This document shows positions 29,561-31,290 of a stretch of DNA of 64,000 nt, one piece after another (the first letter of the stretch is position 1; the number at the start of each line of letters is the position of its first letter). The notes under the pieces were generated by a model that made no database searches, was not told the DNA's origin, and saw only the letters and a program-made list of their open reading frames with translations. Position numbers and translations under genes: made by a program. Source of the stretch: Candidatus Latescibacterota bacterium (GTDB lineage Bacteria; Latescibacterota; UBA2968; UBA8231); NCBI GenBank assembly GCA_964291625.2, contig OZ220089.1:96001-160000 (forward strand), written 5' to 3'.

Positions 29561-30712
29561 CTAACCGTGGGGCAGGCGCATCTCCATCTCTTCATAGGGC
29601 AGGTGGATGGCGTGGGCGGCGACCAACTCCCCGTAGGGGCCGGCCGTGTGCCTCGCAACCTCGAGAGCCGTGTCGACGGCCCCCGTCTCTCCGCGGACGA
29701 CGCAGGCGGTCAGGAAGTAGCCAACCTTGTAACGGCCCTCGTAGGTCACGTCGGCGTGCTTGAGCATCTCGTCGAGGGCCTTGACGAGACCGGCGGTGGT
29801 GCGCGTCTCCACCAGACCCAGGGCGCGGCCTGCGAGGGTGCGCGCACCGGGAGACTCGCTCGCCCGGGCGAAGCAGGCCATCACTTGCGGATCCGGACCG
29901 CCGATCACCACCTGCCCCTCCAGCTCCGCCGTCTCACCGGCCCGGCGAGCGCCCTCGGCGACGGCGGCGCCGACCTCGTCCAGGGATCCGGAGGCAATCG
30001 CCGCCACGCGGCCACCGCTGCCGATCGTCAGCCGCGCCAGGTCGACACGCCCTCCCTTCACCATGCCGTCGACGGCGGCCACCGAGCCCGCGTATCCCGT
30101 GGCCTCGACGATCCCTAGAGCGGCCGCGGTGAGTGGGTCGCCCGGGGGAATGGAGGGCAGCAGGACGCCCACTTCGGCCTCCGGTTGGGGCAGCACCAGG
30201 GCGCCGTGGAACTCCCCCGCCCGCCGGGCCGCCCCTTCCCCGGCCCGCACGGCCGCCTCCACCGACCCCACCGAGCCGCTGACGGTGGCATGCACCAGGG
30301 CGCCGCCGATGGAGGCCCAGCCGTGGAGCTCGACGGCGCCGGCCTTGACCATGGCGTCGGCGCCGGCGGCCAGGGGGACCAGGCCCCGCGTCTCCAGGAG
30401 GCCGATGGCCTGGAGGCCGGCCCTGAACTCGAGATCGGCGCCGAGGTGCGGCATCGGCTCGAGGGCGCCGGAGTCGGCCCCCGGTACGAGGGCCGCCGTG
30501 ATCACCTCTCCGTGGGCGGCGGCCGCCTCCCGCCCCGCGTCGAGGGCGGTGCGCGCGTCGGCCGTGGAGCCTTCGACGATCACGGTCAACCAGCCGGAGC
30601 CGATGCCGTGGCGTCCCCCCAGGCGCACGGAGGCCGCCTTGTGCATGGAGTCGAGGGCCGCCGCCAGAGCCGTCATGCCCCTGACCTCCAGGATGCCGAG
30701 GGCGCGTTCCAT
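29561..30712 (-). CDS. BMC shell protein with four tandem BMC (Pfam00936-like) domains, 383 aa
   Basis: From ATG 30712: ALGILEVRG..DSMHKAA / AIGLLETRG..DAMVKAG / ALGIVEATG..DGMVKGG / ALGLVETRT..DEMLKHA, each followed by a G-x-V-x-x-V-x-x-A-like segment. Confidence 0.9.
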   Translation of the reverse strand: MERALGILEVRGMTALAAALDSMHKAASVRLGGRHGIGSGWLTVIVEGSTADARTALDAGREAAAAHGEVITAALVPGADSGALEPMPHLGADLEFRAGLQAIGLLETRGLVPLAAGADAMVKAGAVELHGWASIGGALVHATVSGSVGSVEAAVRAGEGAARRAGEFHGALVLPQPEAEVGVLLPSIPPGDPLTAAALGIVEATGYAGSVAAVDGMVKGGRVDLARLTIGSGGRVAAIASGSLDEVGAAVAEGARRAGETAELEGQVVIGGPDPQVMACFARASESPGARTLAGRALGLVETRTTAGLVKALDEMLKHADVTYEGRYKVGYFLTACVVRGETGAVDTALEVARHTAGPYGELVAAHAIHLPYEEMEMRLPHG

Positions 30713-31290
30713 CAGCCTGACCCGGCGGCCGGACGGAAGAGGAGGAAGGCCCGCAGCACCGACGGCTGGGGGCGCGGGATCACCGCCGCTGCCATGAACC
30801 ACTCGCTGCCGCCCAGCCTCTCCCGGCCGCGGCCGATGGCCTGTTCGACGGCGTCCACGGCCCCGGTGATCAGGCTGCAGACGACCCGGTCGTGCACGGT
30901 GAGGACGTTGGCCACGGCCACATCGGCGGCCTTCGCCATGGCGTCGTTCACCTCCACCTGGACGCCGTACCCCCGGGTCTCGATCAGGCCCAGGGCGCCG
31001 GCCTCGACCTCGCCCGCGGGAAGGGGGCAGCCGACGAAGCCGGAGCACTCGGGCTGTGGCTGATCGAGGCAGGCGCCGACGACGTGGCCGGTGACGGCGC
31101 CGGCCGCCGCCTCGCCTGCGCGCAGGGCGGTGCTGACATCACCGAGGGGGCCGCGCAGGAAGAGGGTGGTGAACCCGCCGATCGACTCCCATCCCATCAG
31201 CTCGACCCGCGCCGCCTTGCAGGCCGCGTCAGCGCCGACGACGATACCCGCGACTCCCTCGACCTCGATCATCCCCATGGCGTCGGACAC
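30712..31290 (-). CDS. BMC shell protein with two tandem BMC domains
   Basis: AMGMIEVEG..DAACKAA and ALGLIETRG..DAMAKAA..VIPRP; stop overlaps the next ATG (TGATG). Confidence 0.9.
   Translation of the reverse strand: MSDAMGMIEVEGVAGIVVGADAACKAARVELMGWESIGGFTTLFLRGPLGDVSTALRAGEAAAGAVTGHVVGACLDQPQPECSGFVGCPLPAGEVEAGALGLIETRGYGVQVEVNDAMAKAADVAVANVLTVHDRVVCSLITGAVDAVEQAIGRGRERLGGSEWFMAAAVIPRPQPSVLRAFLLFRPAAGSG

Follow-up and report, generated by a model that had tools for sequence, protein, structure and literature searches.

Two adjacent genes in the window, the whole stretch of 64,000 nucleotides that was analyzed, encode shell proteins with four (BMC4) and two (BMC2) BMC domains, and on the strength of structure prediction the two chains probably combine as a 4+2 heterodimeric pseudohexamer. 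The initial annotation had proposed that they make one asymmetric tile, and this proposal is supported by predicted ring closure, co-occurrence, adjacency, and the invariant edge pairs. In the arrangement envisaged, BMC2 and BMC4 would be made from adjacent, mostly overlapping genes and joined 1:1 in a closed ring of six domains in the order 2D1-2D2-4D1-4D2-4D3-4D4. In a metabolosome shell, the ring would serve as a facet tile with the shape of a hexagon. Such a tile would have no rotational symmetry, and its six edges and the six loops round its single central pore would each be separately encoded and separately conserved.

The BMC2-BMC4 Gene Pair

The two genes are as follows.

29561..30712, minus strand: BMC4, a shell protein of 383 aa made up of four BMC domains, none of them permuted (4D1-4D4), defined from the ORF, the junction, and Pfam
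30712..31290, minus strand: BMC2, a 192-aa two-domain BMC protein and the proposed ring-closing partner, defined from Pfam

The longest mechanical ORF for BMC4 begins further upstream, at a GTG at 31048 (495 aa), but the start was placed at the ATG at 30712 because of the N termini of its relatives and the homologous starts in 76 loci, namely the related loci in which the four-domain gene is complete or almost so. The stop codon of BMC2 and this ATG have one base in common (...GGC TGA TGG AAC...). The TGATG overlap, from which the initial annotation had deduced 1:1 synthesis, is confirmed for this locus, but the deduction extends to this clade only, since other clades have an 8-base overlap or short gaps. 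Across the 76 loci, the genes overlap by 1 base in 10, by 8 bases in 37, and by 4 or 13 bases in 3; they are separated by 1-14 nt in 25 and by 175 nt in one. The conserved feature is therefore tight adjacency, in the order two-domain then four-domain gene, and not the exact TGATG overlap. In seven of these loci, both genes are in one frame with only a stop and 1-4 codons between them, and they are never fused, which could mean that BMC2 must also work alone.

Domain Composition and Domain Classes

The initial annotation had read four BMC domains in the single frame at 29561..30712. Indeed, a Pfam scan finds four PF00936 stretches in BMC4 (E 1.1e-61, 205 bits) and two in BMC2 (E 1.3e-31, 108.8 bits), against a Pfam cut-off of 24.5. 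The individual domains, all on the minus strand, are listed here.

31078-31281, minus strand: 2D1 of BMC2; PF00936 match in its own genome
30769-30996, minus strand: 2D2 of BMC2; PF00936 match in its own genome
30482..30703, minus strand: 4D1, BMC-H-like, class c; loop GRHGIGSGW, then the invariant M87-P88-H89 tail; PF00936 match in its own genome
30182..30409, minus strand: 4D2, class a, BMC-T domain-1-like; loop GW.SIGGA; PF00936 match in its own genome
29900..30121, minus strand: 4D3, class b, BMC-T domain-2-like; GY after strand 1; loop IGSGGR; PF00936 match
29603..29824, minus strand: 4D4, class c, BMC-H-like; loop GRYKVGYF; C-terminal RLPH tail; PF00936 match in its own genome

An Asp-x-x-x-Lys motif at the domain edge is the defining edge motif of these proteins and serves tile-to-tile contacts. 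All four such pairs in BMC4 (D21/K25, D119/K123, D215/K219, and D314/K318) and both in BMC2 (D21/K25 and D116/K120) are invariant in alignments of 35 sequences each. The edge lysine motifs quoted in the initial annotation (MHKAA, MVKAG, MVKGG, and MLKHA) are all present in the translations, as are the six loops it listed (SIGGF, TVHDR, GIGSGW, SIGGA, TIGSGG, and KVGYF). The BMC4 alignment contains 62 invariant columns, and in the same 35 sequences, the residues that never vary include, apart from the edge pairs, G38, W41, M87, P88, and H89 in 4D1; W132, G136, and G137 in 4D2; G206, Y207, G233, G234, and R235 in 4D3; and K329, G331, L380, and H382 in 4D4. In the BMC2 sequences, G107, Y108, R135, and C138 are likewise invariant. 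The pore would be lined by the conserved loops, including the basic residues R135 of BMC2 and R235 and K329 of BMC4. The three inter-domain linkers of BMC4 are similar in length, and that between 4D2 and 4D3 carries the conserved prolines P177 and P186.

The best Pfam stretch in each protein runs in normal order from profile position 1 to position 71-75, and the DSSP assignment of the BMC4 model shows the same order of elements repeated in every domain. Because PF00936 is matched in normal order (profile 1-75), the domains of BMC4 and BMC2 hold no circular permutation, and the feature that marks the permuted trimers (BMC-T^sp and BMC-T^dp) is absent from both proteins.

A domain tree built from 18 diverse loci, whose deep branching has little resolution (87 of 177 inner branches are open), places each of the six domain positions in a single clade (SH-aLRT 97-99), so that by phylogeny the six domain classes each appear to form an old clade of their own. 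Two groupings beyond this are supported: 4D3 with 2D2 (SH-aLRT 95) and 4D4 as sister to the BMC-H of the locus (SH-aLRT 91). Similarity of class pairs the domains at opposite positions of the proposed ring, 2D2 with 4D3, 4D1 with 4D4, and 2D1 best with 4D2, and class-specific marks are found in the GY motif of 2D2 and 4D3 and in the [ML]-P-H tails that follow 4D1 and 4D4. Three domain classes would thus recur round the ring as a-b-c-a'-b'-c', and the GY motif and the tails fit such a class-repeat ring. As opposite positions pair by class, both non-covalent junctions of the 4+2 ring (b to c and c to a) would repeat junction types that are covalent within BMC4. The tile would then resemble BMC-T + BMC-H + BMC-T + BMC-H in which H-T-H has become one chain, and the class similarity together with the two supported groupings suggests a T-H-T-H evolutionary origin.

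Conservation and Co-occurrence

Among the relatives of BMC4 listed, the best 120 of the 123 that passed the E-value, 112 are full length (365-404 aa, at least 92% query coverage, 45%-91% identity). A BMC2 orthologue lies directly upstream of BMC4 in all 76 loci and ends between -13 and +14 nt from the BMC4 start, with one at +175. In the phylum, BMC4 is present in 83 of 168 genomes (best E <= 1e-85, counted from the results table) as full-length matches free of internal stops, several of them in single-contig genomes; the genome of the window itself comprises 5.9 Mb in 2 contigs. Being frequent across one phylum, BMC4 is not a curiosity of a single genome. BMC2 (E <= 1e-55) is present in the same 83 genomes and, as a fragment only, in one more (G096), so that 83 of 83 BMC4 genomes have BMC2 and 83 of 84 BMC2 genomes have BMC4. 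Each of these genomes gives a single BMC2 match, apart from G097 with two. Ordinary BMC-domain matches, at the level of BMC-T or BMC-H, reach 152 of the 168 genomes; hence, only BMC2 has the distribution of BMC4. Whether the two genes always occur together had been put forward as a check on the joint tile, and both the adjacent loci and the genome survey, the one fragment aside, agree that they do. Co-occurrence is equally expected for two separate tiles that are jointly required by one type of shell.

The initial annotation had also considered that the pair might be fused into a six-domain protein elsewhere, or that BMC4 might be replaced by two separate two-domain genes. Neither arrangement was found among the listed relatives, the 76 loci, and the profile matches. 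The 120 listed relatives include no six-domain protein of ∼575 aa, the longest being 404 aa. A profile search covered 1.84 billion representatives, of which the best 150 were taken and 20 of the longer ones scanned with Pfam; in none of these 20 did the BMC stretches exceed three, and a match of 569 aa (P0156) has only two.

Locus Context

The pair is found in a microcompartment context, with four PF03319 genes, a BMC-H, a BMC-T, a PRK15398-type aldehyde dehydrogenase, and PduL inside 7 kb. Its neighbors are the following.

27224..28324, minus strand: FAD-dependent oxidoreductase (DAO family, nearest ThiO glycine oxidase); PF01266, E 1.6e-63
28343..29548, minus strand: enzyme of the DHDPS family (class I aldolase/lyase), immediately downstream of BMC4 and extended at its N terminus by ∼80 aa
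31295..31777, minus strand: Cys-rich 160-aa protein, conserved, directly upstream of BMC2
31870..32583, minus strand: PduL-type phosphotransacylase; PF06130, E 4.3e-63
32580..32897, minus strand: BMC-P (EutN/CcmL) vertex protein; PF03319, E 2.9e-21
32901..34325, minus strand: acylating aldehyde dehydrogenase of microcompartment type; PF00171; NCBIfam PRK15398, 640 bits against a cut-off of 403
34336..34602, minus strand: BMC-H, single-domain hexamer protein; PF00936, one stretch, E 2e-27
34616..35173, minus strand: ordinary two-domain BMC-T (185 aa); PF00936, two stretches, E 1.3e-47
35170..36016, minus strand: three more BMC-P genes in tandem (35170-35460, 35457-35711, and 35714-36016); PF03319

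The DHDPS-family enzyme comes after BMC4 in most loci; it matches PF00701 over residues 80-356 (E 1.4e-59) and stays under every NCBIfam cut-off. The oxidoreductase scores 185.8 bits against NCBIfam ThiO, under the cut-off of 250.8. The 160-aa protein matches no Pfam or NCBIfam family, its matches in the Atlas are under 0.9, and an ORF that matches it best is found in most related loci. BMC matches at the two-domain level also occur in genomes of the phylum that do not contain BMC4, and two further single-domain BMC genes lie elsewhere in the genome of the window. The set of enzymes (the DHDPS-family enzyme, the glycine-oxidase-like flavoenzyme, the acylating aldehyde dehydrogenase, and PduL) points to an uncharacterized type of microcompartment, and it is to its shell that the tile would belong. 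The main text of PMC8217296 names FRAG locus types for Gemmatimonadetes.

Structure Prediction and Interface Tests

The AF2 model of BMC4 alone is confident (pLDDT 90.4, pTM 0.89), and its top structural matches are chains of 6ner (TM by target 0.82-0.92, rmsd from 2.1 Å over ∼183 columns), which is also the best sequence match of BMC4 in the PDB (phmmer E 7.7e-32). When BMC4 and BMC2 were predicted as a complex, as the initial annotation had suggested for the 4+2 assembly, the prediction passed with an ipSAE of 0.82 (0.82, 0.83, and 0.76 in individual runs) against 0.00 for the best of three controls. Of 80 solved complexes, 58 reach the mark applied, as do 2 of 110 mismatched pairs; these figures are a rough guide here as our own alignments were used. 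The runs share at least 88% of contacts, with a partner pLDDT of at least 88. In the predicted complex, residues 5-89 of BMC4 (4D1) contact residues 107-137 and 164 of BMC2 (2D2), and residues 304-361 of BMC4 (4D4) contact residues 7-85 of BMC2 (2D1). BMC4 residues 83-89, with the first [ML]-P-H tail, are among those in contact. Since 4D1 meets 2D2 and 4D4 meets 2D1, both ends of the four-domain arc are predicted to be bridged by BMC2, which would close the ring. The geometry of the arc itself is deduced from the pTM, the 6ner matches, and the list of contacts. The predicted pass may come from likeness to the solved BMC hexamers and trimers, which are well represented among known structures, and ring closure in silico might come out equally well with an ordinary BMC-T or with two BMC-H.

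In a covariation test across the predicted interface, mutual information in predicted-partner blocks was no higher than in wrong-partner blocks (p = 0.23; 63 pairs with an effective number of 25, most contacts being invariant), and none of the top 40 inter-chain pairs from the same alignment fell within the predicted interface blocks. Pairwise identities of BMC4 and BMC2 correlate closely in a mirror-tree comparison (r = 0.95-0.97). This correlation is not specific, because the aldehyde dehydrogenase (0.967), the 160-aa protein (0.960), and the oxidoreductase (0.954) correlate equally with BMC4. The value for the 185-aa BMC-T is unreliable, as another BMC protein was possibly picked where the gene lay outside the fetched stretch.

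Alternative Assemblies

Instead of one joint tile, the pair could contribute to two, with BMC2 as a homotrimeric BMC-T and the BMC4 tile completed either by two BMC-H (4+1+1) or by the 185-aa BMC-T. BMC2 indeed has the layout of a normal two-domain BMC-T, the BMC-H and second BMC-T of the locus and the two single-domain genes elsewhere would supply the missing subunits, and BMC-H might fit beside 4D1 and 4D4, which are BMC-H-like. The consistent separation of the genes, even where one stop codon lies between them, and the null covariation result would also be in keeping with two tiles. Nevertheless, we regard this arrangement as rather unlikely: the phyletic pattern of BMC4 is matched by BMC2 and not by the far wider BMC-T and BMC-H level, BMC2 always directly adjoins BMC4, and the 4+2 prediction passes with both ends of BMC4 bridged. 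A homotrimer of BMC2 would, moreover, need a b-to-a junction, a type that neither protein has in covalent form.

Six domains cannot be made up of whole four-domain chains, but twelve can, and three BMC4 chains could build two linked pseudohexamers, either stacked like BMC-T^dp or stapled across tiles, with BMC2 as an independent trimer. Double-layered trimers exist, according to PMC8217296, and the conserved prolines between 4D2 and 4D3 could be seen as favoring such a link. The same paper describes BMC-T^dp as a permuted variant, whereas the domains of BMC4 are non-permuted. The single chain, in addition, is modeled confidently as one rigid body, its domains are placed like neighbors in a hexamer, as the 6ner matches show, and its linkers do not differ much in length. 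The predicted complex has 4D1 and 4D4 turned toward one and the same partner, an arrangement in keeping with an arc rather than with two separate rings. A twelve-domain assembly is considered improbable. We give practically no credence to the view that BMC4 is unreal, either as a fusion of two two-domain genes created by assembly or gene calling or as a decaying pseudogene. Nothing was found in its favor beyond one related locus (L059) where two ORFs, of 302 and 86 aa, stand in place of the intact gene; the full-length relatives, the stop-free matches in 83 of the 168 genomes, single-contig ones included, and the invariant columns, with every domain class conserved, all speak against it. The artefactual fusion, against which the initial annotation had advised a check, is ruled out by this conservation.

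Comparison with Known Shell Proteins

PMC8217296 describes hexagonal tiles as homo-oligomers of one- or two-domain chains and BMC-T as a fusion of two PF00936 domains that forms homotrimers. The pair shares with BMC-T^s proteins (PduT and Haliangium ochraceum BMC-T1, both among the PDB matches) the non-permuted PF00936 fold, a multi-domain chain, and a pseudohexagonal tile of six domains. BMC2 has exactly the two-domain layout of BMC-T^s and is alone in the pair in doing so. BMC4, in contrast, has four domains and cannot make a closed homo-oligomeric ring of six, and the proposed tile would be a heterodimer of unequal chains without the threefold axis of the BMC-T^s homotrimer. In 6ner, a synthetic tandem fusion of BMC-H from an engineered H. 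ochraceum shell, covalently linked canonical domains sit as tile neighbors. That protein is man-made, with two identical domains in a threefold-symmetric trimer, whereas BMC4 is a natural protein whose four domains have diverged and which requires a second chain of a different kind.

The CcmK3-CcmK4 heterohexamers of beta-carboxysomes reportedly consist of single-domain paralogues that mix in variable ratios, a description attributed to Sommer et al. 2019. As in the proposed tile, more than one gene product is involved and the sixfold symmetry of the pore is broken. In the 4+2 tile, however, covalent linkage and one obligate partner would together determine which domain occupies each of the six distinct positions.

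No description of natural four-, three-, or multi-domain BMC proteins was found in the non-subscription literature searched; Supplementary Data 2 of PMC8217296 may list such proteins. Nor did the same literature yield anything relevant on Gemmatimonadetes or Latescibacteria with a microcompartment. The chances appear even that natural shells use, besides 6x1 and 3x2 tiles, an obligate 4+2 heterodimer and probably also 2x3 homodimers of the three-domain family described below, and that the 4+2 tile is the first natural one without rotational symmetry, with six edges that all differ and one pore whose six-way heterogeneity is fixed in the genes. Were this so, it would amount to a new assembly rule, in which the six positions of a tile are fixed individually by gene fusion and a dedicated partner. 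Pores could combine six different loops, and selectivity therefore need not follow symmetry. Position or orientation within the facet could be written into the six different edges, so the tile could take a defined orientation there, or it could recruit one cargo or partner per tile. Tiles engineered to carry exactly one modification site could be modeled on this natural example, and the specification of heteromeric tiles would become directly testable with two genes.

Three-Domain BMC Proteins

A conserved family of BMC proteins with three domains (the P0136 family) was met in the profile search. A scan of metagenomes with the three-domain alignment (A3) returned generic patterns, and none of the 174 BMC-domain ORFs in 80 loci had three domains. 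The AF2 model of the family is confident (pLDDT 93.2, pTM 0.90). Like BMC4, its members have more than two canonical BMC domains per chain, and two copies would provide six domains. The family is distinct from BMC4, as its scores with profile A1 are far lower than those of the BMC4 family and it occurs in other lineages. Unlike the proposed 4+2 tile, a homodimer of the three-domain protein could keep a twofold axis.

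Two Adjacent Genes Encode Six BMC Domains

The initial annotation had described a four-domain BMC gene coupled to a two-domain gene upstream, and the Pfam search bears this out: PF00936 matched four stretches of the 383-aa protein (BMC4) and two of its 192-aa partner (BMC2). The profile was matched in its normal order in both proteins, and the domains are therefore not circularly permuted. The domains of BMC4 (4D1–4D4) and BMC2 (2D1 and 2D2) were located by scanning the window's own genome with PF00936.

BMC2, BMC4 and their domains (window positions)
30712..31290, minus strand: BMC2, 192 aa; PF00936 in two stretches, E 1.3e-31
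31078-31281, minus strand: 2D1
30769-30996, minus strand: 2D2
29561..30712, minus strand: BMC4, 383 aa; PF00936 in four stretches, E 1.1e-61
30482-30703, minus strand: 4D1
30182-30409, minus strand: 4D2
29900-30121, minus strand: 4D3
29603-29824, minus strand: 4D4

The translations contain the edge-lysine motifs and all six loops reported earlier, and the reported overlap is seen at the window junction, where one base is common to the BMC2 stop and the BMC4 ATG (TGATG). The mechanical ORF of BMC4 comprises 495 aa and starts at an upstream GTG; the ATG was taken as the start because relatives begin there. Domain, edge motif and locus all assign both proteins to the BMC-domain shell family. The same scan found 11 BMC domains in the genome (5.9 Mb, 2 contigs), nine of them in the main locus. 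Satellite shell genes with a single BMC domain lie far from it, at G000:C2:608532-608759 (minus strand) and G000:C1:3586026-3586253 (plus strand; G000 denotes the window's genome).

BMC4 Is Conserved and Is Accompanied by BMC2

A search of 5.8 billion clustered proteins with BMC4 gave 123 matches. Among the 120 listed, 112 have a coverage of at least 92%, a length of 365–404 aa and 45%–91% identity; judging by the source names, they come from metagenome-assembled genomes of Gemmatimonadota and Latescibacterota. An alignment of 35 members contains 62 invariant columns, which include the edge-motif Asp and Lys of all four domains and most loop residues. Across 168 genomes of the window's phylum, BMC4 (best E ≤1e-85, counted from the match table) is full length and without internal stops in 83, several of which are single contigs; the window's family accounts for 65 (of 76 genomes), a second for 16 (of 22) and a third for 2 (of 31). 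These matches and the conservation rule out an assembly artefact or a pseudogene, so that the artefactual fusion against which the initial annotation had cautioned now has a negligible probability. A single metagenome-assembled genome has the four-domain gene split into ORFs of 302 and 86 aa (L059:3258-4166 and the next ORF).

Eighty related loci were taken from species-representative genomes, 76 with a whole or nearly whole BMC4 and 4 cut by a contig end. The co-occurrence proposed for the two genes holds throughout, a BMC2 orthologue being found directly upstream of BMC4 in 76/76 loci. The junction overlaps in 50 of them (by 8 bases in 37, 1 in 10, and 4 or 13 in 3), leaves a gap of 1–14 nt in 25, and one of 175 nt in the last. 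None of the 76 loci contains a BMC2-BMC4 fusion; in seven (L009, L012, L017, L026, L030, L044 and L057) the genes are in one frame, with a stop and 1–4 codons between them. The initial annotation had asked whether the genes are fused elsewhere into a six-domain protein; no protein of about six domains occurs among the 120 listed BMC4 matches or among the 150 top-ranked matches of a profile run against 1.84 billion representatives. Within the same 168 genomes, BMC2 (E ≤1e-55) is present in 84, namely the 83 with BMC4 and G096, a genome of ∼980 contigs in which the match covers positions 3–162 only; there is one match per genome, and two in G097. Ordinary BMC-domain matches occur in 152 of the 168 genomes, and the distribution of BMC4 is therefore matched by BMC2 alone.

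Predicted Structure of the BMC2-BMC4 Ring

The AlphaFold2 model of BMC4 (35-row alignment; mean pLDDT 90.4, pTM 0.89) shows one secondary-structure pattern repeated four times. In a Foldseek comparison with the PDB, the best matches were chains of 6ner, an engineered Haliangium ochraceum shell that contains a synthetic tandem fusion of BMC-H (here the fusion chains; TM by target 0.82–0.92, rmsd from 2.1 Å, ∼183 columns), and successive domains of the model therefore appear to sit like neighbours in a hexagonal tile. BMC-only chains among the listed PDB matches have at most two BMC domains.

The proposed 4+2 assembly, one BMC4 with one BMC2, passed complex prediction with an ipSAE of 0.82 (runs 0.82, 0.83 and 0.76) against 0.00 for the best of three controls, by a mark that 58 of 80 solved complexes and 2 of 110 mismatched pairs reach and that is rough where alignments are user-supplied, as here; in families with solved complexes a pass may reflect memorised structures and indicates likeness, not binding. 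The runs agreed in at least 88% of contacts, with a partner pLDDT of at least 88. BMC2 is predicted to touch both ends of BMC4: residues 5–89 (4D1 and its tail) contact BMC2 107–137 and 164 (2D2), and residues 304–361 (4D4) contact BMC2 7–85 (2D1), with a further contact from the 4D2 loop residue 136. Such predicted contacts are those expected of a ring that closes in the order 2D1-2D2-4D1-4D2-4D3-4D4 around a narrow centre. Interface covariation gave no signal because the contact residues hardly vary, and the evolutionary-distance correlation between BMC2 and BMC4 was no higher than with other locus proteins.

Relations among the Six Domains

A domain tree was built from 180 sequences (the six positions of 18 diverse loci, the BMC-T and BMC-H of these loci, and 12 three-domain proteins). 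Each position forms one clade (SH-aLRT 97–99), which dates the split of the six to before the radiation of the family. Most of the deep branches lack resolution, but two groupings are supported: the BMC-H of the locus is the sister of 4D4 (SH-aLRT 91), and 4D3 groups with 2D2 (SH-aLRT 95). By mean class-to-class scores, 2D2/4D3 and 4D1/4D4 are reciprocal best partners, and 4D2 is the class nearest to 2D1. Among ordinary proteins, 2D1 and 4D2 (class a) resemble BMC-T domain 1, 2D2 and 4D3 (b) BMC-T domain 2, and 4D1 and 4D4 (c) BMC-H. The predicted ring thus reads a-b-c-a′-b′-c′, an order in which the noncovalent 4+2 junctions (b to c and c to a) would be of the types that are covalent inside BMC4. 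Class-specific motifs agree with this order: an invariant Gly-Tyr follows the first strand in 2D2 and 4D3 only, and an invariant Met/Leu-Pro-His tail follows 4D1 (M87-P88-H89) and 4D4 (L380, H382). The tail of 4D1 is among the residues in predicted contact with BMC2.

We consider it probable that BMC2 and BMC4 pair one to one as a closed pseudohexamer of six domains, which would enter shell facets via its six intact edges. Its single pore would be lined by six different loops, each conserved on its own, that include glycine-rich turns and the basic residues R135 (BMC2), R235 and K329 (both BMC4); going by their alignment with the canonical loop, they would sit at the pore. That the two proteins build separate tiles, BMC4 being completed by BMC-H or ordinary BMC-T, seems unlikely: for BMC2 to form a homotrimer, b would have to meet a, a junction that the BMC2/BMC4 pair nowhere contains. 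A twelve-domain assembly of three BMC4 chains is more improbable still.

The class assignments suggest that the pair arose from a gene row BMC-T, BMC-H, BMC-T, BMC-H, of which the H-T-H part fused. Some related loci (L005, L006, L008 and L014) carry two BMC-T + BMC-H gene pairs upstream of the gene for a 160-aa protein, an arrangement that fits such a row as raw material of the 2+4 pair.

Comparison with Known Shell Proteins

A BMC-T protein, as the main text of the 2021 catalog defines it, has two domains and forms a trimer (PMC8217296); BMC4 falls outside this definition. Full-text searches of the article texts of open-access journals returned no account of a shell protein in which three or four BMC domains are joined. 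The nearest known counterparts are BMC-T^s, the synthetic tandem BMC-H of 6ner, and the mixed hexamers that CcmK3 and CcmK4 reportedly form.

The BMC4 profile search yielded, in addition, 12 proteins of 286–330 aa with three complete PF00936 domains each by Pfam (P0126, P0129, P0133–P0138, P0140, P0147, P0158 and P0166; no window coordinates). Among the 120 listed matches of P0136, 65 (P0136 included) have 283–345 aa, a coverage of at least 93% and 42%–81% identity, and the names of some refer to Candidatus Sumerlaeia and Hydrogenedentota. AF2 modelled P0136 with a pLDDT of 93.2 and a pTM of 0.90. On these sequence comparisons the three-domain proteins are a conserved family, and two such chains would give a six-domain tile (2×3).

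The Surrounding Locus

The pair belongs to a metabolosome locus that runs from 36016 down to ∼27224, on the minus strand throughout.

Other genes of the locus, in order from 36016
First in order, minus strand: three BMC-P genes in a row
35457-35711, minus strand: middle BMC-P of the three, 84 aa; PF03319, E 2.4e-16
After the three BMC-P, minus strand: ordinary BMC-T, 185 aa, then BMC-H
After BMC-H, within 31870-34325, minus strand: acylating aldehyde dehydrogenase; NCBIfam PRK15398, 640 bits (cut-off 403)
After the dehydrogenase, minus strand: fourth BMC-P, then PduL
31295-31777, minus strand: Cys-rich protein, 160 aa, without a known family; next gene upstream of BMC2
28343-29548, minus strand: DHDPS-family enzyme with an N-terminal extension of ∼80 residues, after BMC4
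After the DHDPS-family enzyme, minus strand: DAO-family flavoenzyme; closest family glycine oxidase ThiO, whose cut-off it does not reach
After the flavoenzyme, minus strand: second DHDPS-like ORF, weak

The BMC-P at 35457-35711 is concealed at the end of a mechanical ORF of 837 aa; with it counted in, the locus has four BMC-P paralogues, three in a row. The locus could be matched to none of the types named in the 2021 catalog's main text (PMC8217296). Most related loci carry an ORF with the 160-aa protein as best match. Compared by eye, the N-terminus of this protein (VVTPTGWDYLRSHGVRL) looks like the N-terminal extension of the DHDPS-family enzyme (KLTPSARDLLRARGIEV), a likeness that may reflect a common targeting or docking segment. 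The enzyme set (26202-29548 and 31870-34325, minus strand) is unusual for a microcompartment, with a DHDPS-family lyase bearing an N-terminal extension, a ThiO-like FAD oxidase, the second weak DHDPS-like ORF, an acylating aldehyde dehydrogenase and PduL. Such enzymes may point to the conversion of an amine or imino acid to a 2-oxo-acid aldehyde, as in a hydroxyproline- or glyoxylate-related pathway.
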